From an uncultured Gemmatimonadota bacterium (GTDB lineage Bacteria; SM23-81; DAOVCL01), in NCBI GenBank assembly GCA_964626665.1, contig CAZVGK010000001.1, positions 32,001-96,000 of the forward strand: a DNA stretch of 64,000 nt, in the 5' to 3' direction. The position numbers and the translations under genes were made by a program. Positions 48,424-64,000 of the stretch are shown here, piece by piece. The notes beneath the pieces were generated by a model that ran no database searches, was not told the DNA's origin, and worked only from the letters and a program-made list of their open reading frames with translations. How positions within the stretch are numbered: the stretch's first letter is position 1; the number at the start of each line of letters is the position of its first letter.

Positions 48424-48945
48424 TTGAAAATAGGGACGCTGCAGGTCTATACTGGGGAGGGGAAGGGGAAGACCACCGCTGCCCTGGGTCAGGCCCTGCG
48501 GGCAGTGGGCCATGGACAGCAGGTGATTGTGATCCAATTTATGAAGGGTCAAATAAACTATGGTGAACTGAAGGCGGTGGAGGATGTTCCCGGATTGAAG
48601 ATTGAGCAGTATGGTTTGCCCACCTTTGTGGAGCGGGGTAATCCCTCCGCAGAGGATAGGGAATGGGCCAGGAAGGGGATGGAGCGGGCCAAAAAGGTCA
48701 TCAGGGAGGCAAGATATGACATGGTCGTCTTGGATGAGATAAGTGTGGCCGTGGACTATGGATTGGTTGGCTTAGATGAAGTCCTCGGTTTAATTAAGGC
48801 CAGGCCCCCGGAGATGGAACTTGTTCTCACCGGCAGATATGCGGCCAAGGAGATAATTGAGCTTGCTGACCTGGTTACGGAGATGAAGGAAATAAAGCAC
48901 CACTATCAAAAGGGCATCCAGGCCAGGGAGGGAATCGAGTTCTAA
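48424..48945 (+). CDS. cobO: cob(I)yrinic acid a,c-diamide adenosyltransferase
   Basis: YTGEGKGKTTAALG, QFMKG, LTGR and GIEF. Confidence 0.94.
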   Translation: MKIGTLQVYTGEGKGKTTAALGQALRAVGHGQQVIVIQFMKGQINYGELKAVEDVPGLKIEQYGLPTFVERGNPSAEDREWARKGMERAKKVIREARYDMVVLDEISVAVDYGLVGLDEVLGLIKARPPEMELVLTGRYAAKEIIELADLVTEMKEIKHHYQKGIQAREGIEF

Positions 48946-49081
48946 GGGGTTCAAGATTGAGGATATGGCCTTGTAGTATGAGAATTCCCACCTATTGGAC
49001 AGGATATACAGGATTGCCAGGATATGAATTGATTATGTAAATCCCGTTTATCCCGTCAAAAAAGCCTTGTCGTTGGTTTCC

Positions 49082-49127
49082 CCAATTCAGTGCCGTCAGG
49101 GCCCCTGCCCTGACGGCACTGAATTGG
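49082..49127. repeat. perfect 21-bp-stem hairpin of the CCGTCAGGG family
   Basis: CCAATTCAGTGCCGTCAGGGC-CCCT-GCCCTGACGGCACTGAATTGG. Confidence 0.85.
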
Positions 49128-49636
49128 ATGTAAGTAGGGACAGGTCTTCAGCCCTGTCCGAAAGAGTGCTGCCCTTGCGCCGCTCTAATTCTCTGCCTAT
49201 GATGAATCAGAGCTAAGGCAGAATATTGGAAATGTTAATTGGTATTTAAAGATGTGACTCCGATTTATGCCAAAAAGGAGAAAAACATCACACAGAACAA
49301 GTTTGAGCGGTTTAACGGTCAAAGTAGAGGGAATTGTATTTTTTAAAACTGCTTTTAGCCCATATTCTGGAAAATAAATTTTGGATTCGTAACTTATTGA
49401 TTTTCAAGGGAAAATTTTCTAGATTTTCATGGACTACATTCAATTGGCGATTATTAAAAAACTGTCTAACTGGTTGATTTTTAAGTAGTTGTTCGTATTT
49501 GACCTTAAATTTTTCCCGGAATGTAGGCTACAGCATAAAAATGCTACCATAACATCCAGGGGCCAGTAGCAACTTTTTCATAGGTGACCTCAGTGACAGA
49601 ATGGCAAAAAATCTTTCTCAAATCTGCATTTTTTTC

Positions 49637-49665
49637 TTGACAAATGCTTACTGAATTCTTATAAT
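49637..49665 (+). promoter_or_regulatory. consensus sigma70 promoter of the aromatic amino acid operon
   Basis: TTGACA-17 nt-TATAAT. Confidence 0.85.
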
Positions 49666-49730
49666 ATATTAGAAAAGGGGGCTGAGGTGTCTTTAAGAAT
49701 GTCAGGACAGATTTTTTGAAGGGAAGTAGA

Positions 49731-49886
49731 ATGATTTTTTCGGTTGGTTCGTCTAAACATGTTGTCAATTATAAGAACCAGTGGCACCATTTGTCCATGG
49801 GGGCATGGTGTCTTTGGATGTGGCACATTTGGTACTATAGTAGCTTACAGAGACCAACCGGAAAAGGATTGAGAGCAATGAAATAG
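49731..49886 (+). CDS. attenuator leader peptide, 51 aa, Trp/His/Tyr-rich
   Basis: MIFSVGSSKHVVNYKNQWHHLSMGAWCLWMWHIWYYSSLQRPTGKGLRAMK; AAGGGA upstream; lies between the promoter and the terminator. Confidence 0.8.
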   Translation: MIFSVGSSKHVVNYKNQWHHLSMGAWCLWMWHIWYYSSLQRPTGKGLRAMK

Positions 49887-49908
49887 AAAATACAACAGAG
49901 TGAAGGTT

Positions 49909-49943
49909 AAAACCCACATCCGATTTCGGTTGTGGGTTTTTTT
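49909..49943 (+). terminator. intrinsic terminator of the attenuator
   Basis: AAAACCCACATCCG-ATTT-CGGTTGTGGG followed by T7. Confidence 0.85.
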
Positions 49944-50093
49944 GTTCGTTCGCCAGAGGGCAGAGTGAGAGTTTCTTCAAAAGTCAAGTTTGATGGTTAG
50001 GCAAAAAGTCAAAAAATGCTCTTGTAACATTGTGAACCTAAAATGCAACTTATTTAAAATGAATATGTTGCTTACCTTGGTTTAATCCGTTAT

Positions 50094-50814
50094 AGCACCA
50101 AAACGGACTTTTTAGCAAAATTGACTAAAACCAAAATAACTGTTGCAGGTGGTGTGAGTTCAATTGATGAGATAAGAGAAGTTGCAAGAATAGGAGTGGA
50201 TGTACAACTTGGTATGGCACTGTATACTGGTAAGATAAATCTCGCAGAAGCATTTATTGAATCGCTCAACTGGAAAGGTGAACTCATACCAACCATTACA
50301 CAGGATCATAGAGGTCAGGTTCTTTTGCCTCGCTTACAGTAACAGGGATTCTCTCAGGAAGGCATTTGAAAAAGGCAAAATGTGGTATTTTTCAAGGTCA
50401 CGAAATAAGCTCTGGATGAAAGGCGAAACATCCGGCAATATACAAGAGCCTATAAGATTAAGGGCAGATGGCGATAGGGATGCACTGCTTGCCACAGTAA
50501 AGCAACAGGGTGTTGCGTGCCATACAGGTGAGTATTCCTGTTTCGGCGCTAAAAAGTTCAGCCTTTATGAACTCTATGAAGTTGTAAAAGACAGGATAGA
50601 AAATCCAAGACCTGAATCATACACCGCAGAACTAACAGATGATATGCTGAGCGATAAGATATTGGAAGAAGCCAAAGACCTTATAGAGGCAAGAGATAAA
50701 GATGGAATAATACGGGAAGCAGCAGATCTTATATATTTTCTGAAGATTCTTCTAGCCAAGAATGGGATCAAAATAAATGATGTATTTAACGAATTAAGGA
50801 GGCGTAGAAGATGA
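50094..50814 (+). pseudogene. hisIE: 5'-truncated, frameshifted HisA-like/HisI/HisE fusion remnant
   Basis: VAGGV...QLGMALY in one frame; YFSRSRNKLWMKGETSGN, ACHTG and EAADLIY in the next; extra T at 50323-50326; DCD motif reads DGD. Confidence 0.82.
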
Positions 50815-51821
50815 AAATAAAAGAAGCAATAAAAAAAATTATTGAACTGAATGACCTAACCCAGCAGGAAGCCTTTGAGGTCGCAATAGAGATTATGAGT
50901 GGTGGTGCAACAGACGCCCAGATAGCTGCTCTGCTTACAGCATTGAGAATGAAAGGTGAAACAATAGACGAGATAACTGGATTTGTCAGGGCAATGAGAG
51001 ATAAGGTAACCCCTATTGAATGTAGTTCTAAAGATCTTGTTGACACCTGTGGCACAGGCGGTGATAGGTCCGGAACATTTAATATCTCAACACTCTCTGC
51101 GTTCGTCGCAGCCGGCGCTGGCTGTAGGGTGGCAAAACATGGAAACCGGTCTGTATCCAGTAGATGTGGAAGTGCTGACCTTCTTAAAGCTCTGGGTGTA
51201 AATATTGAGATTACACCAAAAAGAATGGTAAGCTGTATTGATGAGACAGGTATCGGTTTTTTGTTTGCACCAATTCTACACAAAGCTATGAAATACGCAA
51301 TAGGGCCAAGGAGAGAAGTTGGAGTGAGAACAATTTTTAATATACTTGGTCCCCTTACCAATCCTGCAGGTGCAAGGCGGCAGCTTTTAGGGTTATTTAG
51401 CGATGAACTTACAGAGCCCATCGCAAATGTGTTAAAGAAACTTGGTTCTGAACACTGCCTAGTAGTTCATGGTGAGGATGGACTTGATGAGATAACCATA
51501 ACAGGGAAGACATTCGTGAAGGAATTACGTAATGGGGTGGTGGAGAGTTACTGCATAGAACCAGAAGATTTTGGAATTCAAAAGGGAACAATTGATGATA
51601 TTAGGGGTGGCGATGTAAACGATAATGTTAGGATTGCTCTGGATATTCTCAATGGTGGCAAGGGACCTAAGAGAGATATAACGGTTTTTAATGCCGGTGC
51701 AGCCATCTATGTAGGTGGTAAGGCAGCATCGCTTGCAGAAGGTATCGAACTTGCAAAGGAATCAATAGATTCTGGCAAGGCAATTGAGAAACTCCAGATG
51801 CTGAGGGAAATGACGCGATGA
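50811..51821 (+). CDS. trpD: anthranilate phosphoribosyltransferase
   Basis: DTCGTGGD, KHGNRSVSS and GSAD. Confidence 0.97.
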   Translation: MKIKEAIKKIIELNDLTQQEAFEVAIEIMSGGATDAQIAALLTALRMKGETIDEITGFVRAMRDKVTPIECSSKDLVDTCGTGGDRSGTFNISTLSAFVAAGAGCRVAKHGNRSVSSRCGSADLLKALGVNIEITPKRMVSCIDETGIGFLFAPILHKAMKYAIGPRREVGVRTIFNILGPLTNPAGARRQLLGLFSDELTEPIANVLKKLGSEHCLVVHGEDGLDEITITGKTFVKELRNGVVESYCIEPEDFGIQKGTIDDIRGGDVNDNVRIALDILNGGKGPKRDITVFNAGAAIYVGGKAASLAEGIELAKESIDSGKAIEKLQMLREMTR

Positions 51822-52591
51822 ATTTACTGAAAAGAATAGTTTCATACAAAAGAGAAGAAGTGAAGAAGAGAAAAAGCATTGTTTCCGTTGGAACTCTTAA
51901 AAGTGGAAATTTCCCAAAAGTGAGAGATTTCAAATCAGTGCTTGAAAAAGAAGGTATATCAATAATTGCCGAAATAAAGCGGATGTCCCCCTCAGCAGGT
52001 ATTATAAGAGAGGATTTTGACCCTACCCAAATGGCAAGAACATATGAAGAGAATGGGGCAAGTGCCATTTCAGTGCTTACAGACAGAAAATTCTTTGGTG
52101 GTAGTATTGATTATGTAATTGCGGTTAAGAACGAGGTGAATCTGCCCGTATTAAGAAAAGAGTTTATCATTGATGAGTATCAGATTTATGAATCACGCTA
52201 CATTGGTGCTGATGCAGTTCTCCTTATTGCAAGGATATTGACTTCTGCTGAACTGGGCAGGTTCATTTCGATAGCAAAAGAATTGGGACTGGCATGCCTT
52301 GTTGAGGTTCATACACGGAATGAACTTGAAGAGGTTTTATCAACAATCACAGAGATAATAGGAATAAACAACAGAAACCTTGATACACTTCAGATTGATA
52401 TTAAAACTTCACTTGAATTGAAGAAGATGACCCCAGAAGGGTATATTACTGTGAGTGAAAGCGGGATAAAAACAAGAGAGGATGTCCTAAAACTTCAAGA
52501 AGCTGGCTTTGATGCTATACTTGTTGGTGAAACACTTATGCGGACAAAAAATTTAGGAAATAAACTTAAAGAACTTTTGGGAGAAGTATAG
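51818..52591 (+). CDS. trpC: indole-3-glycerol phosphate synthase
   Basis: IAEIKRMSPS, GINNRNL and VSESG. Confidence 0.96.
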   Translation: MNLLKRIVSYKREEVKKRKSIVSVGTLKSGNFPKVRDFKSVLEKEGISIIAEIKRMSPSAGIIREDFDPTQMARTYEENGASAISVLTDRKFFGGSIDYVIAVKNEVNLPVLRKEFIIDEYQIYESRYIGADAVLLIARILTSAELGRFISIAKELGLACLVEVHTRNELEEVLSTITEIIGINNRNLDTLQIDIKTSLELKKMTPEGYITVSESGIKTREDVLKLQEAGFDAILVGETLMRTKNLGNKLKELLGEV

Positions 52592-53674
52592 ATGGAAATC
52601 CTTGATGAATTGAGAAAAAAGGTGAGCGAGATTGATAGAGAGATTATAAAGTTGATAGCAAAGAGGCTCGAAATTACAAAAAAGATCGGTAAAAAGAAAA
52701 AGGAGGAAGGTATACCTTTGCGAAACTGGGAGATAGAGAAAGCAGTAATTGAAAATGCAACAGAATTTGCTGCTGAATTAGGGATATCTCCTGCTCTTAT
52801 CAAATCACTTATGCAGCAACTTATAACGGAATCCCGTATACAGCAGGAGATACTTCATTACTCTGCCTACAAAGGGGATAAAGAGAATGTTCTGATTATT
52901 GGTGGATTAGGAGAGATGGGCAAATGGTTTTCGTATTTCTTCCAGAATCAGGGCCATAATGTATCGATTTATGACATCAAAGGCGAATCAGAGGATTTTA
53001 AATCATACGGAAGTCTGGAAGAGGGGATTGAGGAAGCATCATTTACTCTTATTGCCACATCACTTGAGGTAGTTCCGGAGATAATAAACAAAATAACAGA
53101 ACTGGGGTTCAAAGGTATTGTATTTGATATAGCAAGCTTGAAAGGACATTTAGAGGATTCTATCAAAAGGGCAACTGATAAGAGAATTTCCATTACCAGC
53201 ATTCATCCTATGTTTGGTTCAAATGTACGAACACTTTCCGATAAGGTAATTTGCCTCTGTGATTGCGGAGATAAGGAAGCAAATCAGAAAGTTGAATTTC
53301 TCTTCAAAGGCACAGCCGCATCGATTGTGAAACTATCGCTTGAGGAGCATGATCGTGTTATTTCTTTTGTGCTGGGACTTTCTCACATAATAAATATCAT
53401 ATTTATGAAGGTACTCATGGAGGGAGGCTATAAGTACGACGAATTGAAGAAGATTGCAAGTACTACCTTCCTTTCTCAAATGGTAACTGCAACCAGTGTA
53501 ATTAAGGAGAATCCACATCTCTATTATGAAATACAAAAATACAATCCATTTAAAGGAGACTTATACGAAAAGTTAAAAGAAGCTACAAAATCAATTACCG
53601 ATATTGTCTCATCAGCAAACAAGCCAGAGTTCATAGAAATCATGGAAAAAGGTAAGTATTGGTTAGGAGAATGA
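52592..53674 (+). CDS. tyrA: chorismate mutase / prephenate dehydrogenase fusion
   Basis: N-terminal AroQ-class chorismate mutase (LDELRKK...R); IIGGLGEMG, DIASLK, SIHPMFG and EEHD. Confidence 0.9.
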   Translation: MEILDELRKKVSEIDREIIKLIAKRLEITKKIGKKKKEEGIPLRNWEIEKAVIENATEFAAELGISPALIKSLMQQLITESRIQQEILHYSAYKGDKENVLIIGGLGEMGKWFSYFFQNQGHNVSIYDIKGESEDFKSYGSLEEGIEEASFTLIATSLEVVPEIINKITELGFKGIVFDIASLKGHLEDSIKRATDKRISITSIHPMFGSNVRTLSDKVICLCDCGDKEANQKVEFLFKGTAASIVKLSLEEHDRVISFVLGLSHIINIIFMKVLMEGGYKYDELKKIASTTFLSQMVTATSVIKENPHLYYEIQKYNPFKGDLYEKLKEATKSITDIVSSANKPEFIEIMEKGKYWLGE

Positions 53675-54273
53675 TGACAAAGATAAAGATATGTGGTGTA
53701 ACAAATATTGAGGATGCAATGATGATTGCTGAACTCGGTGCAGATGCCTTGGGCTTTGTTTTTGCTCCATCAAAGAGAAGGATAAGCCCGCAGGATGCAA
53801 AAGAAATTATAAAAAGACTTCCACCATTCGTCACAACCGTTGGTGTATATATGGACGCAGAGATTGATGAGGTAAATCAGGTAACCGAATACACTGGGAT
53901 AGATGTTATTCAACTTCATGGAAATGAGCCACCGACCCATTGCGATAGGCTCAAAAAGAAGGTAATAAAAAGAATCTCGGTATGTGATAATGATACTACT
54001 GAGATGCTTATTTCAAGGATGGAAAGATACCGAGTTCCTGCCTATCTTTTGGACCCTGGGGCAGGCAGTGGTAAGGTATTTAATTGGGAAAAAGCAGTGG
54101 GTATTGATTTACCTCTTATCATTGCGGGAGGACTTACCCCGGATAATGTAAAAACTGTTGTACGATTGTTAAAGCCTTACGGGGTGGACGTCTCTTCAGG
54201 AGTAGAACAGTTTCCTGGTAAGAAGAATAAACAAAAGGTGAAAAGATTTATAGAGGAGGTGAGGTCTTGTTGA
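53671..54273 (+). CDS. trpF: phosphoribosylanthranilate isomerase
   Basis: KIKICG, QLHGNE, AGGLTPDNV and DVSSGVE. Confidence 0.95.
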   Translation: MMTKIKICGVTNIEDAMMIAELGADALGFVFAPSKRRISPQDAKEIIKRLPPFVTTVGVYMDAEIDEVNQVTEYTGIDVIQLHGNEPPTHCDRLKKKVIKRISVCDNDTTEMLISRMERYRVPAYLLDPGAGSGKVFNWEKAVGIDLPLIIAGGLTPDNVKTVVRLLKPYGVDVSSGVEQFPGKKNKQKVKRFIEEVRSC

Positions 54274-55043
54274 TTACAGGAATAATAGGTTATCCCTTAG
54301 AGACTACGCTTTCACCCAAGATGCATAATGCAGCATTTAAGGAATTGGGAATAGATGGTGTTTATCTTCGCTTGCCTGTTTTAAAAGAAAGGTTGAAAGA
54401 GGCAACGCTGGGTCTTCGTGCGCTCGGTTTCAGGGGAGTGAATGTAACAGTTCCTCACAAAGAGACTATAGTGGAATATCTTGATGATACTACAGAGGAG
54501 GTGAAAAGGGTTGGTGCTGTGAATACGATCTTGATAGAGGATTATAAACTTATCGGGCACAACACAGACATATATGGATTTAAGGAGTCTTTGATGGAAT
54601 ATAAAATTGATATCACAGATAAAGATCTTCTAATTGTAGGGGCAGGTGGTGCTGCCCGTGCCTGTGCTCATGTAATAAATTCGATGAAACCAAAGAGGTT
54701 CATCATTACAGATAAGATTCTTGAAAGAGCAGAGGTCGTTTCAAATTTATTTGATGCAGAAATAATTGAGCCTGCTGAAATTGAGAATATTATTCCTGAA
54801 ATGGATATTGTAATAAATGCAACCCCCATAGACTTTCAAGAAATGATATTACCAGTTATGAAACGAGGAGCTGTCTACTACGACGTAAATTATAAATTTA
54901 GAAAGTTAAAAGGAAGGGATATTAAGATGATAAATGGACTTTTGATGCTTGTACTTCAGGGTGCGCAATCTTTCCATTTATGGACGGGAAGGGAAGCACC
55001 AATAGAGGTAATGAAAAATATGGTAGGGTTTGAAAATGATTAG
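54267..55043 (+). CDS. aroE: shikimate dehydrogenase
   Basis: SPKMHN, NVTVPHK, GAVNT, NTD and GAGGAA. Confidence 0.95.
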   Translation: MLITGIIGYPLETTLSPKMHNAAFKELGIDGVYLRLPVLKERLKEATLGLRALGFRGVNVTVPHKETIVEYLDDTTEEVKRVGAVNTILIEDYKLIGHNTDIYGFKESLMEYKIDITDKDLLIVGAGGAARACAHVINSMKPKRFIITDKILERAEVVSNLFDAEIIEPAEIENIIPEMDIVINATPIDFQEMILPVMKRGAVYYDVNYKFRKLKGRDIKMINGLLMLVLQGAQSFHLWTGREAPIEVMKNMVGFEND

Positions 55044-56178
55044 ATGGTTGACTTCGGGTGAATCGCACGGAAAGGGATTGTCTGTTATCATCGAGGGATT
55101 ACCTGCTGGTATACCCGTGGATGTTGAATTCATCAACGATGAACTTCTGCGAAGGCAGAAAGGATATGGTCGTGGAAAGCGGATGACAATAGAAAAGGAT
55201 CGCGTGGAAGTATTGTCCGGGGTGAGATACGGAAAGACTATCGGTTCCCCTGTTAGTCTGTTTATTAGTAATAAAGATTATGAAAACTGGAAGGATATTA
55301 TGAAAATAGAGCCTGGCAAAGAGACTGATAAGGTGACCTCTCCCAGGCCAGGGCATGCCGACCTTGCAGGAGTGCTGAAGTATGGCTTGGATGATATAAG
55401 AAATGTGATTGAGCATGCCTCTGCAAGGGAGACTGCGGCAAGAGTTGCAGCAGGTGCAATTCTTAAATTGTTTTTAAAAGAGTTTAAGATCGAATTTTAC
55501 TCCCATACAATTGCAATCGGTGGTATAAGCATAAATGAGAGAAAAAGAGAAATTGATAAATTAGAGAATACACCACTGCGGTGTATGGATCCAGAGAAAG
55601 AAAAAGAGATGATCAAACTTATTGATGAGGCAAAAAGTAGAGGCGATTCGATCGGCGGAATAAGTGAGGTTGTCGCCCTTGGTGTTTGCCCCGGGCTTGG
55701 AAGTTACTCTCATTACGATAAACGATTGGACGCAAGGATTGCTCATGCAATGCTTTCTATCCCGTCTGTGAAAGGTATTGAGATAGGTGAGGCCTTTGAG
55801 AATTCTAAAAGATTTGGATCGGATGTCCATGATGAAATATTCTACAGTGATGAAAAGGGTTTCTATCATAAAACAAACAGGGCTGGTGGAATAGAAGGTG
55901 GTGTCAGTAATGGTGGGGATATTGTTGTCCGCCTTGCAATAAAACCCATACCAACACTTAGAAAGCCTTTTCATTCGGTAGACATATTGACAAAAGAAGA
56001 GCGACTTGCCCAGAAGGAACGGGCTGATGTATGTGTCGTTCCTGCTGTGGGGGTGATTGGTGAGGCGATGCTCGCCTTTGTTATTTCCGATGCCTTCATT
56101 GAGAAATTCGGTGGGGACTGCCTCGATGATATAAAATCACACTATGATTTATATATGAAGAGGATAAGAGATGTCTGA
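55036..56178 (+). CDS. aroC: chorismate synthase
   Basis: TSGESHG, PRPGHAD, SARETA and KPIPT. Confidence 0.96.
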   Translation: MIRWLTSGESHGKGLSVIIEGLPAGIPVDVEFINDELLRRQKGYGRGKRMTIEKDRVEVLSGVRYGKTIGSPVSLFISNKDYENWKDIMKIEPGKETDKVTSPRPGHADLAGVLKYGLDDIRNVIEHASARETAARVAAGAILKLFLKEFKIEFYSHTIAIGGISINERKREIDKLENTPLRCMDPEKEKEMIKLIDEAKSRGDSIGGISEVVALGVCPGLGSYSHYDKRLDARIAHAMLSIPSVKGIEIGEAFENSKRFGSDVHDEIFYSDEKGFYHKTNRAGGIEGGVSNGGDIVVRLAIKPIPTLRKPFHSVDILTKEERLAQKERADVCVVPAVGVIGEAMLAFVISDAFIEKFGGDCLDDIKSHYDLYMKRIRDV

Positions 56179-57757
56179 TAATATAATTCTTATTGGATTT
56201 ATGGGAACAGGAAAGGATGTTGTTGGGAAGCAGATCGCAAGAAAAACGGGAATGAGTTTTCTTTCAGTTGATGAATTCATAGAGCTGAGGGAGAATAAAA
56301 CGATAAGCAGGATATTTGAGGAATCTGGTGAAGGGTATTTCAGGAGGTTAGAAAAAGAGGCGGTTCTGGCAATAAAGGATTTGAAGAATACAGTTGTAGC
56401 AACTGGGGGAGGAATTGTTATTGATGAGGAAAATCGGCGGCTTCTTTCTAAAATGGGTACAGTAATTCATCTTGAAGCAAAACTGGATCTCATTGAAGAA
56501 AGACTCAGAGATGATTTTAATCGTCCACTGATACAGGATAAAAAGAACATAAAGAGAATATTTAAAGAAAGGAAGGGTATATACGATTTTGCAGAACTAA
56601 AAATTGATACATCATTTAAGAATCCCCATGAGATTGCAGATGAAATAATCCAAAAAGGAAATGTAAGAAAGAGAGACAGGAACTTCCCACTTGATACAAT
56701 CGTTGTGAAATCAGAATTAAAAAACTATCCTGTTCATGTTGGATCGGGCATTCTTACAAGCAATAAAAATTTCATTAGACTGCTGGATCTGAATACCAAT
56801 AGAACAATAGTGATTACCAATCCACTTGTGGGCGCTTTATATCTACAGTCTATTGAGGATGCCCTTAATGAGAACAAAGTCAATCCCATTCACTTTATCG
56901 TACCTGATGGAGAGGAGTATAAGACATTAGAGATGGCTACCCGTATCTATGATTTTCTCTTGGAAAATAAGGTAACTAGATCAGAGCCAATAATTGCCCT
57001 TGGTGGCGGTGTAATAGGAGATCTTGCTGGTTTTGTTGCCGCTACATACAAGAGGGGAGTACCTCTCATCCAGATTCCGACAACACTACTTGCCCAGGTC
57101 GATGCATCTATTGGTGGTAAGACTGGTGTTGACCATAAACTGGGGAAGAATATGATTGGAGCCTTCTATCAACCCGATTCGGTAATTACCGATGTGGCCG
57201 TGCTCTTAAGTCTTTCAGAGAGGGAATTTAGAAATGGTCTGGCAGAGGTGATAAAATACGGAATTATAAAGGATCAAAAACTCTTTTCTTTGCTTGAAAA
57301 AAAGCATAACGAAATTTTAGACCGTGATATCAATATCCTTACTGAAATTATATCGAGGTGTATACAGATAAAGAGAAAAATTGTACAAGAGGATGAAAGG
57401 GAGGAGAAGGGCATAAGGGAGATTTTGAACTATGGGCATACAATAGGCCATATTATTGAGACGCTCACGGGTTATTCACAATACAGGCATGGTGAGGCAG
57501 TAGCAATTGGTATGGTTGAGGAAGCCAGAATGGCCGTGAGGAACGGCGTTTTGGAGGAAGAGGATTTAAAAAGGTTATCAGAGCTGATTTCATCATACGG
57601 GTTGCCTGTGGAGATACCCGAGTCCATAAGTAGGAATGATGTAAGGGGAAAGATACTTCAGGACAAGAAGGTCAGGCATGGAGAAATAAGAATGCCCATT
57701 CCTGAAGGGATAGGAAGAGTTGTCTTAAGGGAGGTACGATGCGAAACATTGTTGTAA
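56171..57757 (+). CDS. aroB: shikimate kinase / 3-dehydroquinate synthase fusion (AroK-AroB)
   Basis: GFMGTGK and ATGGG; then GGGVIGD, PTTLLAQVD, LNYGHT and HGEAV. Confidence 0.95.
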   Translation: MSDNIILIGFMGTGKDVVGKQIARKTGMSFLSVDEFIELRENKTISRIFEESGEGYFRRLEKEAVLAIKDLKNTVVATGGGIVIDEENRRLLSKMGTVIHLEAKLDLIEERLRDDFNRPLIQDKKNIKRIFKERKGIYDFAELKIDTSFKNPHEIADEIIQKGNVRKRDRNFPLDTIVVKSELKNYPVHVGSGILTSNKNFIRLLDLNTNRTIVITNPLVGALYLQSIEDALNENKVNPIHFIVPDGEEYKTLEMATRIYDFLLENKVTRSEPIIALGGGVIGDLAGFVAATYKRGVPLIQIPTTLLAQVDASIGGKTGVDHKLGKNMIGAFYQPDSVITDVAVLLSLSEREFRNGLAEVIKYGIIKDQKLFSLLEKKHNEILDRDINILTEIISRCIQIKRKIVQEDEREEKGIREILNYGHTIGHIIETLTGYSQYRHGEAVAIGMVEEARMAVRNGVLEEEDLKRLSELISSYGLPVEIPESISRNDVRGKILQDKKVRHGEIRMPIPEGIGRVVLREVRCETLL

Positions 57758-58176
57758 TACATGGACCAAATCTTAATCTTCTAGGGAAGCGAAAACCAGA
57801 GGTATACGGGACCCTGACTCTTGATGAGTTGAACAGGAAGATAGAAGCCTTTTCCGAAGAGAAGAATATCGTGGTGCATATCATTCAGTCCAACAGTGAG
57901 GGCGATATCATCGGCGCGATTCATGATGCTGGTGGTACTCACGGAATAGTGATCAACCCTGGCGGGTATACCCACACCTCGGTTGCCATCAGGGATGCTG
58001 TGGAAGCTGTTGGGGTTCCGGTTGTGGAGGTTCACATCAGCAATATCTATGCGAGGGAAGCGTTCAGGCAGAAATCTGTGATTGCTCCGGTTTGCATCGG
58101 ACAGATAACAGGACTGGGCTGGGTTGGTTACCTATTGGCAATTGAATACCTTATGAAAATGAGTGAGGGAAAATGA
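57739..58176 (+). CDS. aroQ: type II 3-dehydroquinate dehydratase
   Basis: [17 protein letters not shown] and EVHISN. Confidence 0.96.
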
Positions 58177-59354
58177 GAACGAACTTACCCGATGAAAGAG
58201 GTTATTTCGGAAAGTTCGGCGGCAGGTACGTCCCTGAAACGTTGATGACTGCCCTTGATGAATTAGAAAAGGCATACCTGTCGATGCGGGATGATCCGGA
58301 ATTCAAGAAGACGTTCGATTATTATCTTCGTGAATACGCAGGTAGACCGTCCCCATTGTACTCTGCTCGTAGACTCACAAGAGAACTTGGTGGTGCCAAG
58401 ATCTACCTGAAGCGCGAAGACCTCATGCACACGGGCGCGCACAAGATTAACAATACGATTGGTCAGGTTCTTCTTGCAGAGAGGACGGGAAAGAAAAGAA
58501 TCATTGCTGAGACGGGTGCAGGTCAGCATGGCGTCGCTACTGCCACTGCCTGTGCCTTATTTGGACTTGAATGTTCCGTTTACATGGGCACTGAGGACAT
58601 AGAAAGACAGAAAATGAATGTATTCAGGATGGAACTCCTTGGTGCTAAGGTTATACCTGTTGATTCAGGTTCCAGAACCCTCAAGGATGCAATAAACGAA
58701 GCTATAAGGGATTGGGTAACAAATGTCACCACTACCTATTATTGTATCGGCTCTGTGGTTGGACCTCATCCTTACCCTATGATGGTGCGTGATTTTCAAT
58801 CTATAATAGGAAAGGAGACAAAGGAACAGATACTGGGAAAAGAAGGCAGACTGCCCGATCTACTTATTGCTTGTGTTGGGGGCGGCAGCAATGCCATTGG
58901 ATTGTTTTATCCGTTCATAGATGATGATGTCAAAATGGTCGGTGTGGAGGGGGGAGGAGCAGGGTTGGATACCCGAAAGCATGCAGCCACATTGTGCAGG
59001 GGTAGCATTGGCGTTCTCCACGGTTCTATGAGTTATTTGCTCCAGGATGAAAACGGACAGATACTTCCAACACACTCGGTTGCTCCTGGATTAGATTATC
59101 CTGGTGTGGGCCCAGAACATGCTTATCTTAAAAATACCAATAGGATAGAATATACGTTTGCTACAGATGAGGAGACCCTCGAAGCATTTAGAATACTCTC
59201 AGAGACAGAGGGGATAATACCTGCACTTGAAAGTGCACACGCCGTCGCATATACGCTTAAAGTTGCCAGGAATATGCCAGAGGATAAGATAATCGTGGTA
59301 AATCTTTCTGGCCGGGGAGACAAGGACTTAGAAATTGTGGAGGGTGTGATATGA
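58173..59354 (+). CDS. trpB: tryptophan synthase beta chain
   Basis: [18 protein letters not shown] and GLDYPG. Confidence 0.98.
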
Positions 59355-60118
59355 GAATAAGGGAAACGTTTGATATCCTTAACCAGGCCGGAGAGATGTT
59401 ATTTATACCTTATATCACTGCTGGCTATCCTTCACTTGAGGAGTCAATAAACATTTTCCGTATGCTCTGCGAGTACGGTGCAGACATAATAGAAATAGGT
59501 GTTCCTTTCTCTGATCCTATTGCAGATGGTCCGACGATTCAGTATTCGTCGCAGATTGCCCTACAAAATGGCGTGACACTGAAAAAATTGATGGGCAGGT
59601 TGAGGGACGTGAAGATAGACAAGCCATTGATACTTATGTCCTATCTGAACCCATTACTGGCGTATGGAAAAGAAAATCTCTATAGAGATATGAAGGAAAT
59701 CGGTCTGTCAGGAATAATTGTTCCTGATATGCCTGCTGAGGAATCTGACGAATGGCTCTCTCTATCAAAGGCTTATGATATTGATATTATTTTTCTCGTT
59801 GCCCCCACATCCTCTGATGAGAGGATAAGATTTATTGCTGAACGGTCTTGCGGTTTTATATATTGCGTTAGTATCACAGGAACAACAGGAATGAGGGATG
59901 AATTACCAGGCGGGCTTTTAAGATTTATCAGGAAAATCAAGAAACTAACAGATGTGCCCGTTGCAGTTGGTTTTGGTATTTCAACACCTGAACAGATATT
60001 AACACTAAAAGGAGAGATAGATGGTGTTATTGTAGGAAGTAGAATAATAGAAGCCATAAGACGAGGAGAGAATTTAAAAGAAATTGTAGCGAAGTTGAAA
60101 AGTACAACAAGGAGGTAG
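59351..60118 (+). CDS. trpA: tryptophan synthase alpha chain
   Basis: [17 protein letters not shown] and VGFGIS. Confidence 0.97.
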
Positions 60119-60120
60119 AT

Positions 60121-61134
60121 ATGTTAGTAGTAATGCATAAAGATGCAACTAAAGAACAGATTGATAAGGTTAGCAATGTAATAAAAGAGATGGGGCTTAA
60201 AGCCCATCCTATCCCTGGTGCGCAGAGAGTTGCCATCGGAATAACAGGGAATAAGGAAATGGTAGACACTAACAGGATTGAAGGACTTCCTGGTGTAGTA
60301 AATATAATCCATGTTACCCAACCATTTAAGCTTGCAAATAGAGAGTTTCATCCTGAAGATACAATTGTCTCTGTTGATGGGAAATTTATTGGTGAAAAAG
60401 AGATTGCAATTATCGCAGGGCCTTGTGCTGTAGAGTCTGAAGAAAGTCTGTTAGAGATTGCAGAATTAGTTAAGGAAGCAGGGGCAAAATTCTTACGCGG
60501 CGGTGCGTTTAAACCAAGGAGCTCCCCATATAGTTTCCAAGGATTAGGAGAGAAGGGTTTAGAAATCTTGGCAAAGGCGCGTGAGCGCACAGGGCTCTCG
60601 ATAGTTACCGAGGTACTTTCCGAAGTGGATGTTCCCCTTGTATCACAATATGCAGATATCTTTCAGATAGGAGCCAGGAGTATGCAAAATTTTCCCTTAC
60701 TTAAGACAGTCGGTAGATTCCCAAAGCCGGTATTGCTTAAAAGGGGGATGTCGGCAACAATTGAGGAGTTGCTAATGTCGGCTGAGTATATCTTATCTGA
60801 GGGAAATCCCAATGTGATCCTGTGCGAAAGAGGAATCAGGACTTTTGAGAAATATACAAGAAATACATTGGATATTAGCACAGTTCCGGTGATTGACCGC
60901 TTGAGCCATCTACCCATTATTATCGATCCGAGCCATGCCTCTGGGAATTGGAGATACGTTAGCGCCCTTTCGAGGGCTGCGATTGCGGCGGGGGCCGATG
61001 GCCTGTTGATAGAAGTTCATACCAACCCTCCGGGTGCGCTTTCGGACGGGAAGCAGTCTCTGAAACCTGAAAGGTTTAATCAATTGATGGGAGAGATTAA
61101 AAAGATTGCAGCGGCAATAGGGAGGAAGGTATGA
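60121..61134 (+). CDS. aroF: DAHP synthase class I-beta with N-terminal regulatory domain
   Basis: [19 protein letters not shown] and DPSHA. Confidence 0.95.
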
Positions 61135-61952
61135 AGAGAGTTTTTTATCAGGGAGAGAGGGGATGTTTCAGTGAACTTGCTGCTGAGAAGTTCTTTGATA
61201 GCCCAATAGAGGGAATCGGGGTGCCCACATTTGAGGCCGTGTTCGAAGCAGTGAAAAATGAAAGAGATGGTTATGGAATCATTCCCATCGAAAACGCTCT
61301 GACGGGAAGTATTCATCAGAATTACGATCTTCTCCTGAAGTATGATCTCTGGATTGTCGGAGAGGTGAGGTTGAAGATTACATTCAACCTGTTGGCTCAT
61401 CCAGGAGTTCGTTTGCCATCGATAAATGAAGTCTGGTCTCATCCCGTGGCCCTTGATCAATGCAAGGAATTCTTCACGCGTCATCCTGAATACAAAATTG
61501 TTCCGGTTTATGATACTGCAGGAGCGGCAAAAATTCTTCAGAAAGAGAAGAGAACCGATGTAGGTATTCTTGCGGGTCCCCAGGTTGCCAAACTTTATGG
61601 GCTTGAAACACTTGAACAGAGGGTCGAAGATAATCCCCAGAATTTTACACGATTCCTCATTCTCTCAGGTGAAAAGAAAATCTGTACGGGTCAAGATGTC
61701 AAGACCTCTCTTGTCTTCGGAGTCAAGAATGCCCCAGGTATTCTCTTCAAGTGTTTGAGCATTTTTGCGTTAAGAAATATCGACCTCACAAAATTGGAAT
61801 CCAGGCCCATCATCGGAAAACCCTGGGAATATCTATTTTATATTGATCTGAAAGGGAGTATTGAAGATGAAAGTTGTAAGGGCGCAGTGGAGAACTTTCG
61901 TGAGGTCGTTGCCTATTTGAGAATTTTAGGGAGTTACGAACTGAAGTGGTGA
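61131..61952 (+). CDS. pheA: prephenate dehydratase with ACT domain
   Basis: [13 protein letters not shown] and LTKLESRP. Confidence 0.95.
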
Positions 61953-61956
61953 CGGT

Positions 61957-63267
61957 ATGAGACTCGTATTGAGAAAGTGCATCTCGCCCAGGGGTGAGGT
62001 GAAGGTGAGTGGAGATAAATCGATAACGCACAGGGGTTTCATCATTGGGGCCGTTGCTCGAGGGAGGAGTGTGCTTCGTGGGTATTCGAGATGCCAGGAT
62101 TGCGTGGCAACACTGAAGACCTTACGGGAGCTCGGAATATTCACAGAAGAATCGGAATCCACCGTGTCCATTCAGGGGAAAGGATTGGGCGGGCTTACTG
62201 AACCCGACGATGTGCTAAACTGTGAGAATTCCGGGACGACTATGCGATTGCTTGCCGGGCTGTTATCGGGGCAGGATTTCTTCTCCGTACTGACCGGGGA
62301 TGGTTCGTTACGAAGAAGACCGATGAGTAGGATTATTCAGCCGTTGAGTCAGATGGGTGCAGAGATCCGCGCAAGAAGTGGGGGCAGATTTGCTCCATTG
62401 AGCATTCAGGGCAGCACATTGAAGTCCATTGATTACACACTGCCTGTGGCCAGTGCCCAGGTGAAATCTGCCATCTTACTCGCCGGCCTTTGTGCCGATG
62501 GTGAGACAATCGTCGAAGAGCCGTATCCCACGAGAGATCATACCGAACGGATGCTGGCCCTTTTTGGCGCAAAAATCGAAAAAGCGGGTGAGAGAACGAT
62601 CCTTCGAGGGGAGGATAGCAACCTCGAAGCAAAGGAGTTGATCGTCCCGGGTGATCTCTCCTCGGCAGCCTATTTTATCGTCCTTGCAAGTCTTGCCCGT
62701 GATTCGGAGATTCTTTTGAAGGATGTGGGTGTAAACCCGACCCGAACAGGGATACTCGATGCGTTGGAAATGATGGGTGCAGGGATCTCTTTCTTGAATC
62801 GCAGGACGGTTTCCAATGAACCCGTTGCCGACCTTATGATTAAATCTGGTGGACTCGAGGGAAGAGAGGTATCGGGCAAACTCATCCCCAGACTCATAGA
62901 TGAAATACCTGTGTTGGCGGTGGCGGCTACTCAGGCAGAAGGGGTCACTGTGGTTAGGGATGCAGCCGAATTACGGGTAAAGGAGACCGACAGAATCAAG
63001 GCGATAGTGAAGGAACTCAAAAAAATGGGTGCCAAAATAGAGGAAAGAGAGGATGGATTTACCGTGGAAGGGCCGACACGGCTTTACGGAGCCTCGTGCA
63101 GTTCTTTTGGTGACCACAGAATTGCAATAGCCTTAGCCATTGCCGGACTTATAGCCGATGGAGTAACGACGATTGATGGTGCTGAATGTATAGACATTTC
63201 ATTCCCTGAATTCATACCAACAGCAAGGAAGGTGTGTGGTGAAGATAGGCTCACTACCCAAGATTAG
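61957..63267 (+). CDS. aroA: EPSP synthase (class II)
   Basis: GDKSITHR, SAQVKSA, RDHTERM, ELRVKETDR and DHRIA. Confidence 0.97.
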   Translation: MRLVLRKCISPRGEVKVSGDKSITHRGFIIGAVARGRSVLRGYSRCQDCVATLKTLRELGIFTEESESTVSIQGKGLGGLTEPDDVLNCENSGTTMRLLAGLLSGQDFFSVLTGDGSLRRRPMSRIIQPLSQMGAEIRARSGGRFAPLSIQGSTLKSIDYTLPVASAQVKSAILLAGLCADGETIVEEPYPTRDHTERMLALFGAKIEKAGERTILRGEDSNLEAKELIVPGDLSSAAYFIVLASLARDSEILLKDVGVNPTRTGILDALEMMGAGISFLNRRTVSNEPVADLMIKSGGLEGREVSGKLIPRLIDEIPVLAVAATQAEGVTVVRDAAELRVKETDRIKAIVKELKKMGAKIEEREDGFTVEGPTRLYGASCSSFGDHRIAIALAIAGLIADGVTTIDGAECIDISFPEFIPTARKVCGEDRLTTQD

Positions 63268-64000
63268 ATTCAACCGTGAGAGACTCGAATTAAAATCTTC
63301 TCCTGTGAGTGTATTCGAGGAAGTCTATAACCAGGATTATTTTGGCTTTATCTATGAATCATTGGAGAGTGTGGGAGAGAGGGGTAGATATTCATTCATT
63401 GGTGCAAGACCTTTCATCTTATTTAAGAGCAAAGGAGAAGATATAGAAATTAATGTTATGAAAAAGACTTACAAGAAGAAAGGGGATCCTATAGATTTTT
63501 TAAGAAGTATTGTGGCAGAATATAGAGAATGTCCTGATACGGTGTTCCCCGGTGGTGCGGTTGGATATATCTCCTATGATGCTGTAAGATTCTTCGAAAA
63601 AATTCCTGACATAAATCCGGATGAACTTGCTGTTCCTGATACATATTTTATGTTCCCTTCTGAGATAATCGTCTTTGATCACAAGGAAGGGACCGTTGAT
63701 ATTATTGTGTATTCTGAAAAGAATAATCAGGAAAGAATAAAGGAGTTGAGAGGTGCAATTGAGACATGCACAAAGGAGACTGCATTTCGACCTCATAAGC
63801 TTGAGGCGCCACTACCATTTGAGTCAAATTTCACCAAAGATTCCTACCAAGAGATTGTAGAAAAAGCAAAAGAATATATCTACGCAGGTGATGTATTCCA
63901 GGTTGTGCTTTCTCAGAGGTTCCGATGTTGTGTAGAGAAAGAACCCATCCGTATTTATAAGGCCCTCCGTCTCACAAATCCTTCCCCTTACATGTATTAT
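63239..64000 (+). CDS. trpE: anthranilate synthase component I (partial, runs off the window; absent from the ORF track)
   Basis: GTG at 63239 after AAGGAAGG; YES...GRYSFIG, GGAVGYISYD, AGDVFQVVLSQR and NPSPYMYY. Confidence 0.9.
   Translation, partial: MKIGSLPKIRFNRERLELKSSPVSVFEEVYNQDYFGFIYESLESVGERGRYSFIGARPFILFKSKGEDIEINVMKKTYKKKGDPIDFLRSIVAEYRECPDTVFPGGAVGYISYDAVRFFEKIPDINPDELAVPDTYFMFPSEIIVFDHKEGTVDIIVYSEKNNQERIKELRGAIETCTKETAFRPHKLEAPLPFESNFTKDSYQEIVEKAKEYIYAGDVFQVVLSQRFRCCVEKEPIRIYKALRLTNPSPYMYY

Follow-up and report, generated by a model that had tools for sequence, protein, structure and literature searches.

A probable ribosome-mediated attenuator with mixed Trp, His and Tyr codons upstream of an aromatic amino acid operon in an uncultured Gemmatimonadota bacterium

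Leader-peptide attenuation is the standard textbook example of a cell that monitors the charging of its own tRNA. The 14-codon leader trpL of Escherichia coli and Salmonella provides the classical model of competing 1:2, 2:3 and 3:4 pairings, and in E. coli trp the antiterminator, the less stable of the two structures, has to form before the terminator does. Multivalent leaders are found in enterobacteria as well, namely thrL (Thr and Ile) and ilvL/ivbL (Ile, Val and Leu). To our knowledge, the attenuators described so far respond to one amino acid or to several amino acids of one branched pathway. Here we analyze the leader at positions 49637-49943 of a 64,000-nt stretch of DNA (the window; contig CAZVGK010000001.1 of assembly GCA_964626665.1) from an uncultured Gemmatimonadota bacterium. 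The leader lies upstream of an operon of trp, tyr, phe and aro genes and is rather likely to be a ribosome-mediated (leader-peptide) transcription attenuator with mixed Trp, His and Tyr regulatory codons. All coordinates are positions in the window.

The window leader resembles trpL in its promoter, in a leader open reading frame with Trp codons in segment 1, in a 2:3 pairing that is weaker than 3:4 and would win kinetically, and in the termination predicted for an untranslated leader. It differs from trpL in having no Rfam match, in its length (51 codons against 14), in its mixture of Trp, His and Tyr codons, in a second Trp/Tyr-rich cluster on segment 2, in a long-range clamp between two segments called A and C below, and in a second antiterminator; furthermore, the window operon encodes the synthesis of Trp, Tyr and Phe together with the common aromatic pathway. 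Like thrL and ilvL/ivbL, it is a single leader with codons for several end products of the regulated pathway; however, the amino acids sensed by those leaders belong to one branched pathway, whereas the window leader and its relatives combine aromatic codons with codons for His, the product of an unrelated pathway, the two pathways being merged in one operon. The same comparison holds for AroR, a Phe-Tyr-Phe leader before aroF of Corynebacterium glutamicum, as it is presented in the relevant passage of a review (PMC11802643). An earlier note, made from the letters of this DNA, knew of no described leader of Trp/His/Tyr composition. Full-text searches of the openly searchable literature (subscription-only papers were outside their scope) found no paper on a leader combining His with aromatic codons, but with AroR a mixed aromatic leader is already in print.

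The aro-trp-hisC-tyrA supra-operon of Bacillus subtilis, which these sources describe as TRAP-controlled in the passages concerned (PMC1173090, PMC4027176, PMC3064811), likewise unites aromatic, trp and his-type genes in one unit and chooses between terminator and antiterminator in its leader; PMC1173090 also gives a list of aromatic supra-operons that have putative attenuators. In B. subtilis the sensing is done by TRAP on (G/U)AG repeats, whereas the 99.65%-complete genome of our organism has no match to the TRAP gene (MtrB, PF02081; the control search was positive in B. subtilis) and no regular GAG/UAG array is seen in the leader by eye. TRAP-mediated attenuation was rejected for lack of a TRAP gene match. 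A cmscan of 48900-50900 at E<=10 found no T-box (RF00230), Trp_leader (RF00513) or His_leader (RF00514), returning only chance miRNA/snoRNA-type matches on a nearby repeat hairpin, and an Rfam scan of 17 related loci at gathering thresholds gave 0 matches.

The order of a promoter, a small open reading frame (sORF) and an intrinsic terminator upstream of the trp/tyr/phe/aro operon, as the earlier note described it, is confirmed. The elements of the leader are the following:

49637-49665, + strand: sigma-70-type promoter, TTGACA-17-TATAAT, 12/12 consensus positions
49699-49719, + strand: mini-ORF MSGQIF* of 6 codons, read from the sequence, with GAGGTG 9 nt upstream
49731-49886, + strand: leader sORF of 51 codons, from ATG at 49731 to TAG at 49884-49886
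49735-49749, + strand: segment A, codons 2-6, pairs with segment C
49778-49817, + strand: hairpin 1:2, -21.1 kcal/mol
49814-49823, + strand: antiterminator strand 1, codons L28-W29-M30-W31, partner 49914-49923 (terminator 5' arm)
49852-49869, + strand: segment C, codons 41-46, pairs alternatively with segment A or with 49918-49932 (antiterminator 2)
49909-49943, + strand: intrinsic terminator, core stem 49913-49922 / 49927-49936, loop ATTT, T-run 49937-49943

Of the 6 promoter-like sites in 48900-50900 (shuffled sequences give 4.0 +/- 1.9 sites), none but this promoter reaches 12/12, and from the terminator to trpD the + strand carries a single promoter-like site, a weak one (9/12, 50201-50228). 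Transcription would start at about 49672, which gives a leader of about 270 nt and a 5' untranslated region (5' UTR) of 59 nt before the sORF; there is no start codon at this presumed start in the window leader, unlike in the leaders of relatives. The frame of the sORF is open over 66 codons, and its translation is MIFSVGSSKHVVNYKNQWHHLSMGAWCLWMWHIWYYSSLQRPTGKGLRAMK. The sequence AGGGAAG stands 5-11 nt before the leader ATG and is similar to the GAGGGAAA preceding trpC and trpB, and the tail of the genome's 16S RNA has CCTCC. The MSGQIF* mini-ORF, which together with its good GAGGTG site occupies 49685-49719 in the 5' UTR, stops 11 nt before the leader ATG and overlaps a hairpin over the leader ribosome-binding site; it could gate or couple translation of the leader sORF.

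The accumulation of Trp, His and Tyr codons in this frame is clearly beyond chance. A recount agrees with the numbers given in the earlier note: the sORF has five Trp codons (18, 26, 29, 31, 34), four His codons (10, 19, 20, 32) and three Tyr codons (14, 35, 36), besides one Phe codon, and 10 of the 19 codons from 18 to 36 specify Trp, His or Tyr. At least 10 such codons in 19 occur in only 3 of 25,621 open segments genome-wide (stop-to-stop, 40-70 aa, six frames) and never in 20,000 shuffled versions of the leader that preserve its dinucleotides. At least five Trp codons by themselves appear in 327 of the 20,000 shuffles, and by eye five of the seven TGG triplets within the sORF are in frame. 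The sORF contains a 14-nt internal duplication (GTGGCACCATTTGT / GTGGCACATTTGGT, 49781-94 / 49820-33, spaced 39 nt), and this suggests that the second, W/Y-rich cluster was derived from the first by duplication and may be its by-product.

The leader also contains interlocking complementarities. The terminator arms, AAAACCCACATCCGA at 49909-49923 and TCGGTTGTGGGTTTT at 49926-49940, are 93% complementary, with an energy of -18.7 kcal/mol and seven T at 49937-43; the stem has one internal mismatch, and the terminator is absent from the output of a simple terminator scan. Segment A, which has TTTCGGTTG in common with the terminator 3' arm, forms with segment C a helix of 15 uninterrupted pairs (49735-49749 : 49852-49866, -20.0 kcal/mol), of a kind that is present in 123 of 5,000 shuffles. 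The pairing of 49736-49748 with 49853-49865 noticed earlier (12 Watson-Crick pairs and one G-U) is thus real and longer than claimed. Likewise, GGATGTGG (49816-49823) is the exact complement of 49914-49921, as had been proposed, and the helix extends to 10 pairs (49814-49823 : 49914-49923, -16.1 kcal/mol). The alternative pairing of segment C with the terminator exists too, but it spans the top of both arms and not the 3' arm alone: antiterminator 2 joins 49855-49869 to 49918-49932 (-18.1 kcal/mol; 80% of 15 nt complementary, by eye 12 Watson-Crick pairs and one G-U). Both antiterminators are mutually exclusive with the terminator. Hairpin 1:2 carries Q17-W18-H19-H20 on its 5' strand and W26-C27-L28-W29 on its 3' strand, and only 2 of 200 shuffles fold as well as the leader as a whole (z = -2.33). 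Two further statistics told nothing: perfect Watson-Crick pairing runs for 8 nt at most, a length reached in 227 and 833 of 3,000 shuffles, and the duplex energy of one half against the other is matched in 1,155 of 2,000. A module-2 helix between 49812-49846 and segment C was dropped as weak (-9.6 kcal/mol). The 9-mer GGTGTCTTT is found twice, in the 5' UTR (49686-49694) and in segment 2 (49807-49815), and either copy is able to pair with segment 1 and with AGAGACC in segment C.

In the mechanism that we propose, RNA polymerase would head for the terminator (49909-49943) while a ribosome translates the 51-codon sORF of a transcript begun at about 49672. Segment 1 would be 49778-90, segment 2 would be 49801-23 (W26...W31), and segments 3 and 4 would be the 5' and 3' arms of the terminator, the energies of 1:2, 2:3 and 3:4 being -21.1, -16.1 and -18.7 kcal/mol. 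With plentiful charged tRNAs the ribosome would pass segments 2 and C to the stop at 49884, the terminator arms would be free and transcription would terminate. With a shortage of tRNA-Trp, tRNA-His or tRNA-Tyr it would stall early, best supported at H10, Y14 and W18-H19-H20, so that hairpin 1:2 would open, 49814-49823 would pair with the terminator 5' arm and polymerase would read through into trpD...trpE, a read-through to which the second antiterminator (49855-49869 : 49918-32) might add. In an untranslated leader helix A:C and hairpin 1:2 would hold both antiterminator strands and the terminator would form; segment A would act as an anti-antiterminator through its pairing with segment C. 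We infer that the sORF is translated, that ribosomes stall on it, which of its codons count, and that read-through results.

In the stall model, folding was confined to the RNA between the 3' edge of a stalled ribosome and the terminator loop; pseudoknots and kinetics are not represented in this model. Stalls at S7-G24, which include H10, Y14, W18, H19 and H20, leave 49812-25 paired with the terminator 5' arm at a P of about 0.79. Applied to the leaders of two related loci as controls, the model gives 0.72 over Y11-H18 in L133 against 0.02 at the stop, and 0.81 on the WWW codons W14-W16 in L021 against 0.01 at the stop. Since it peaks on the regulatory codons of both controls, this crude model recovers attenuators of known type, and it supports antitermination by stalls at H10, Y14 and W18-H19-H20 of the window leader. 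The co-transcriptional snapshots agree: at lengths 49922-30 the fold of lowest energy has the first antiterminator if the ribosome is at W18, at 49930-34 it has the second one (C : 49918-32) if the ribosome is at W34 or Y36, and once 49938 is reached the terminator is the most stable structure in every case. With the ribosome at the stop codon neither antiterminator forms, in the snapshots or in the stall model. In the untranslated leader helix A:C closes the entire W-rich domain and the terminator forms. When a transcript cut at 49924 is folded under the mask with its 5' part kept, A:C dominates and antitermination is obtained only with A masked, because A:C together with the first antiterminator is a pseudoknot and lies beyond the folding program; the two could nevertheless coexist, the connecting loops of 28-64 nt seeming long enough.

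The earlier note had suggested looking for sORFs rich in Trp, His and Tyr ahead of homologous operons, and such sORFs, rich in W/H/Y/F, were found, their codon mix following the genes of the operon. Their absence had been named by the note as a refutation, so that this outcome favors its reading. In the public genomes with the closest TrpD (74%, 70%, 64% identity and so on), the genes immediately before trpD are his genes. Of 14 long loci, 13 have trpD after hisG-hisC-hisB-hisH-hisA-hisF/IE, L117 being the exception, and in 12 of the 14 the onward order trpC-tyrA-trpF-aroE-aroC-aroKB-aroQ-trpB-trpA-aroF is identical to that of the window. Wherever 200 nt or more of sequence was available before hisG, in 17 of 17 loci (two more at contig ends were dropped), there is an sORF that ends 61-206 nt upstream of hisG and reaches 7-11 W/H/Y/F per 12-codon window; a loose filter (at least 6 W/H/Y/F) also flagged three sORFs farther upstream with scores of 6-7. 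The consensus of these leaders is ...NHNHTTFHFNHYWYWHFRAQ, and their usual end ...LNHNHTTFHFNHYWYWHFRAQ is replaced by ...NLYFGHCYWYWHFRT in L095 and by ...FVYFFNYFWHPGHCLGCH in L097. In this family 6-7 nt separate the -10 box from the start codon, a large hairpin has the last codons (W-H-F-R-A) as its 5' arm, and the nucleotides of the 3' half of the leader hardly vary over 10 genomes. The sORFs of L098-L113, upstream of hisG in relatives of genome G041, are apparently leaderless mRNAs, the first 9 nt of which (GTGGTTAAG) are complementary to the codons L-N-H preceding the regulatory run. The L098-L113 family may work through direct ribosome occlusion or another non-classical route.

With these WOR-3-type leaders the window leader shares the gene order from hisF-IE on, TrpD at 52-74% identity, aromatic and His codons, and a short xWxWH motif, CLWMWH in the window against CYWYWH in L095, which is the sole hint of a homologue and is reached by 29 of 1,000 shuffles. 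The WOR-3-type leader, however, is a leaderless sORF that ends in HYWYWHFR[AT], with its last codons in the 5' hairpin arm and its stop in the loop, whereas the window has the 59-nt 5' UTR, a separate canonical terminator, no hisG and no similarity in DNA or profile, and its frame continues 17 codons beyond the WxWH motif.

The closest counterpart is L133, which came from a scan of metagenome contigs, as did L132 of the same organism (100%), and has the closest non-self TrpD (77%). Its leader MKAKMVNSSMYTYWWTYHHPGTGPPMIRF* is leaderless, 29 codons long and placed between hisD and trpD, and its segments GGTGGACCT / AGGTCCGCC / TCGCGGACC / GGTTCGCGA followed by T9 make a canonical terminator and antiterminator. 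L133 and the window leader have in common mixed Y/W/H codons directly upstream of trpD, a terminator of hairpin and T-run, and the 1:2 / 2:3 / 3:4 arrangement; they differ in length, in the leaderless start, in the position after hisD and in the placement of all regulatory codons of L133 in or before segment 1, and their sequences cannot be aligned. Farther downstream, at L133:2880-3014, trpF follows trpC almost directly with a weak 10-residue match to the C-terminus of TyrA in between, which may be the trace of a tyrA deletion. In L161 (TrpD 72%) the leader, at L161:1666-1785 and of the family type, ends in ...SQFTYYYYWYWPIRT (...FTYYYYWYWPIRT) with an aromatic cluster lacking a His codon, and L161:1940-3753 holds a hisC-like aminotransferase and then trpD, with no other his gene and no hisG-hisF. 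The L161 leader is a natural His-less counterpart of the mixed leaders. In nine loci (L016, L018, L019, L020, L021, L135, L137, L138, L148) the sORF just upstream of trpD has WWW and no other enrichment; these were chosen by position among 99 and 20 flagged sORFs in 80 + 80 loci, the remainder being mostly out-of-frame noise inside genes. Five of the WWW-led loci extend 4 kb or more downstream (L016, L018, L020, L021, L135), and all five have a plain trpD-C-F-B-A(-E) order without tyrA or aro genes. That the codon mix of the leaders tracks the products of the operons would be hard to explain unless the codons are read. The window, with its tyrA/pheA/aro operon and its W/H/Y leader, fits this series.

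Downstream of the leader, the window contains the following features:

49990-50113, strand not assigned: copy of a host repeat element of 125 bp, with 78% copies on contig C8 and several in congener G002
50112-50814, + strand: remnant of a hisF-hisIE fusion gene, residues 181-252, a frame change, then residues 249-408
50811-64000, + strand: the regulated operon, assigned by NCBIfam matches and running past the window end

The operon has 14 genes in the order trpD-trpC-tyrA-trpF-aroE-aroC-aroKB-aroQ-trpB-trpA-aroF(DAHPS)-pheA-aroA-trpE, tyrA encoding a chorismate mutase-prephenate dehydrogenase (CM-PDH), and its frames, all on the + strand, overlap or abut. The hisF'-hisIE remnant before it has 70-73% identity to the L095 gene; its frame changes near residue 250, and the hisIE part is an open frame of 185 codons (50257-50814). 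The deletion comprises hisG-hisA and, of hisF-IE, the first 180 codons, and the repeat at 49990-50113 ends exactly at the start of the remnant, that is, at the break point of the his deletion. By tblastn, hisG, hisB, hisH and hisA were not found in the 99.65%-complete genome, nor was hisD by a curated model that matches 14 of 14 control genomes. The organism is therefore probably a histidine auxotroph with an orphan hisIE frame.

The aromatic operon looks foreign to its phylum and horizontally acquired. TrpD is present in one of seven genomes of the phylum and in neither of two congeners (90% and 97% complete), its closest relatives are WOR-3-like metagenome-assembled genomes (74-77% identity), and the GC content is 38.8% in the leader, 42.2% in the operon, 48.6% in the rest of the window and 48.9% in the genome. 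Probably the leader was acquired together with the operon: the donor would have been a WOR-3-like lineage with a his+trp+tyr+phe supra-operon behind a mixed His/Phe/Tyr/Trp leader, and a later deletion beside the host repeat would have removed hisG...hisF', so that the His codons would now report on a lost pathway. The unique leader sequence (49593-49989) is boxed by repeats at 49353-49592 and 49990-50113 that are present on many contigs of the same genome. The spacer downstream of cobA (48982-49592 and 49990-50113) is altogether a patchwork of genome-specific repeats, among them a unit of about 180 bp (49353-49543) with six further copies at 80-90% identity and hairpin-type units (49080-49166) with many partial copies and a 22-bp perfect hairpin (49081-49128).

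A number of observations speak against mixed-codon attenuation at this locus and have to be set beside the evidence above. The earlier note had proposed folding the leader with a ribosome mask at each codon, and the truncated stall model does separate early from late stalls; the equilibrium version was uninformative, the fold of the full leader keeping the terminator with P>=0.93 whichever codon is masked, and therefore any regulation must be kinetic. The same note saw one leader sensing Trp, His and Tyr through two antiterminators. Both pairings exist and appear in the snapshots, but most of the codons in WCLWMWHIWYY (W26-Y36) are badly placed: antiterminator strand 1 contains or immediately precedes W26, W29, W31, H32, W34, Y35 and Y36, so that stalling at W26-Y36 is predicted to leave this strand covered by the ribosome, and the pairing of 49812-49825 with the 5' arm in the stall model falls to 0.25 at W26 and to 0.00 from L28 onward. 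Antiterminator 2 would help only with segment A masked, for which queued ribosomes, for instance, have to be assumed; segment A lies 60-90 nt upstream of stalls at W26-Y36 and, if free, captures C first (-20.0 kcal/mol). The complementarities to the terminator are modestly unusual, each being found in 8-10% of shuffles: a duplex with the terminator 5' arm as good as -16.1 occurs in 190 of 2,000, and one with 49914-49936 equal to the observed in 161 of 2,000.

The fit between codons and genes is also incomplete. The earlier note matched the leader codons with the downstream content; however, the four His codons stand before a his content that amounts to the frameshifted hisF'-hisIE tail, the searches for other his genes in the genome having found none, and Phe has a single codon despite pheA. 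Sensing of His therefore no longer fits the operon and is probably vestigial, a relic. Genome G078 (L117/L099) has a mixed W/H/Y/F leader (...NWTISHYCFWHFRTTGSDRA), yet no trpD within 20 kb after its his operon, and so it is either a counter-example to a strict matching of codon content or a recent rearrangement. The design of the window leader is unlike that of its relatives, with a 51-codon sORF that is not leaderless, a weak Shine-Dalgarno sequence and a stop 22 nt before the terminator stem. Moreover, the T-run in the WOR-3-type leaders L098-L113 is often 5-12 nt from the big hairpin or missing (L113), which makes the mechanism of this family itself less certain.

Searches for a homologue of the window leader weigh in the same direction. 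Against the fetched loci (94 and 80) blastn and tblastn matched only the organism's own contig L132, nhmmer with a profile of 15 WOR-3-type leaders gave no match in the window leader at E<=100, and 201 genomes related to G041 match the promoter stretch 49606-49677 only. There was no candidate for the leader peptide among called proteins of 28-90 aa, and DNA alignments with L133, L095, L161 and L104 were no better than those of shuffles (89-388 of 500 reach the score). Because no homologue was found, the conservation of the leader is one of analogy and not of alignment. Common descent from a leader of the WOR-3-type family nevertheless seems plausible, since the operons are orthologous, the leader stands upstream of the his remnant and its GC content is low. 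In sum, the interpretation of the earlier note is partly supported: it appears right in kind and partly wrong in detail.

Of the other explanations, one might argue first that the switch has decayed, the promoter and terminator having persisted after the his deletion and the repeat insertions while regulation was lost and expression came to depend on leak-through or on an unseen promoter. Host repeats do flank the leader (49353-49592, 49990-50113), the sORF is unusually long and has its internal 14-nt duplication, the antiterminator strand itself carries half of the regulatory-type codons, and there is no homologue through which purifying selection could be shown. Yet the promoter is perfect (12/12) and the terminator intact, the 66-codon open frame keeps its extreme W/H/Y cluster, the three interlocking complementarities are all still present, and a strong unregulated terminator would largely silence 14 intact biosynthetic genes. 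Contigs of four other DNA runs were compared, of which those of X22 and X23 do not reach the leader; in X20 and X21 it has no differences from the window where it is covered, which is weak evidence against decay, as contigs only were compared, and offers no variation by which the helices could be judged. A decayed leader is, all this considered, unlikely.

There is also only a slim chance that the sORF is translated and that its Trp codons alone matter, those for His and Tyr being incidental or relics without effect. Trp is the most enriched residue (5 of 51), the related pure trp operons have WWW leaders, and sensing of His would be purposeless where the other his genes are not found; for the Phe-Tyr-Phe leader AroR of C. 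glutamicum the passage of the review that deals with it states that Tyr availability had no effect (PMC11802643). However, the zone predicted to antiterminate holds a single Trp codon (W18) against three His and one Tyr, five Trp codons turn up in 327 of the 20,000 shuffles in which the combined W/H/Y cluster never does, and mixed leaders are what the nearest relatives have when their operon includes tyrA. A translation-independent RNA switch, in which the A:C-closed domain would sense a ligand, tRNA or protein and, when empty, free 49814-49823 to antiterminate, would suit a structured domain with a 15-pair closing helix, a fold that beats 198 of 200 shuffles (z = -2.33) and an antiterminator strand inside that domain, but it is highly improbable, for no Rfam family including the T-box is matched at E<=10, the genome has no TRAP gene, no conserved homologue defines an aptamer, all close homologous operons have leader peptides, and an aptamer would leave the in-frame W/H/Y cluster unexplained.

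None of these accounts as well as attenuation by a mixed leader peptide for an in-frame cluster of three amino acids that parallels the leaders of the homologous operons. A more specific version of this attenuator can be tentatively put forward, though we consider it doubtful: a three-input device for Trp, His and Tyr, in which the first cluster (H10, Y14, W18-H20) would act via 49814-23 and the second (W26-Y36) via segment C once queued ribosomes mask A, acquired horizontally into a phylum otherwise without the pathway, and in which the His response would have been kept, with histidine starvation cross-inducing aromatic synthesis.

Compared with the described systems, the mechanism would be of a known kind, classical ribosome-mediated attenuation, made more interesting by the apparent horizontal transfer, the his loss and the retained His codons, and less certain by the lack of an orthologous leader. 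Here and in the related loci, a single mini-gene seems to serve as a sensor for amino acids of two unrelated pathways, those of His and of the aromatic amino acids, because the two have been welded into one operon. The leaders form a graded series: pure trp operons have WWW, operons of his and aromatic genes have H/F/Y/W, and where hisG-hisF is absent the aromatic cluster has no His. To this series the window adds a case in which the his genes have just been deleted and the His codons retained, so that the rewiring of an attenuator becomes testable by codon swaps, in a regulatory element that lies outside current RNA-family libraries. If the three-input reading is true, nature would have left here a series of leaders whose codons are re-tuned as the content of the operon changes.

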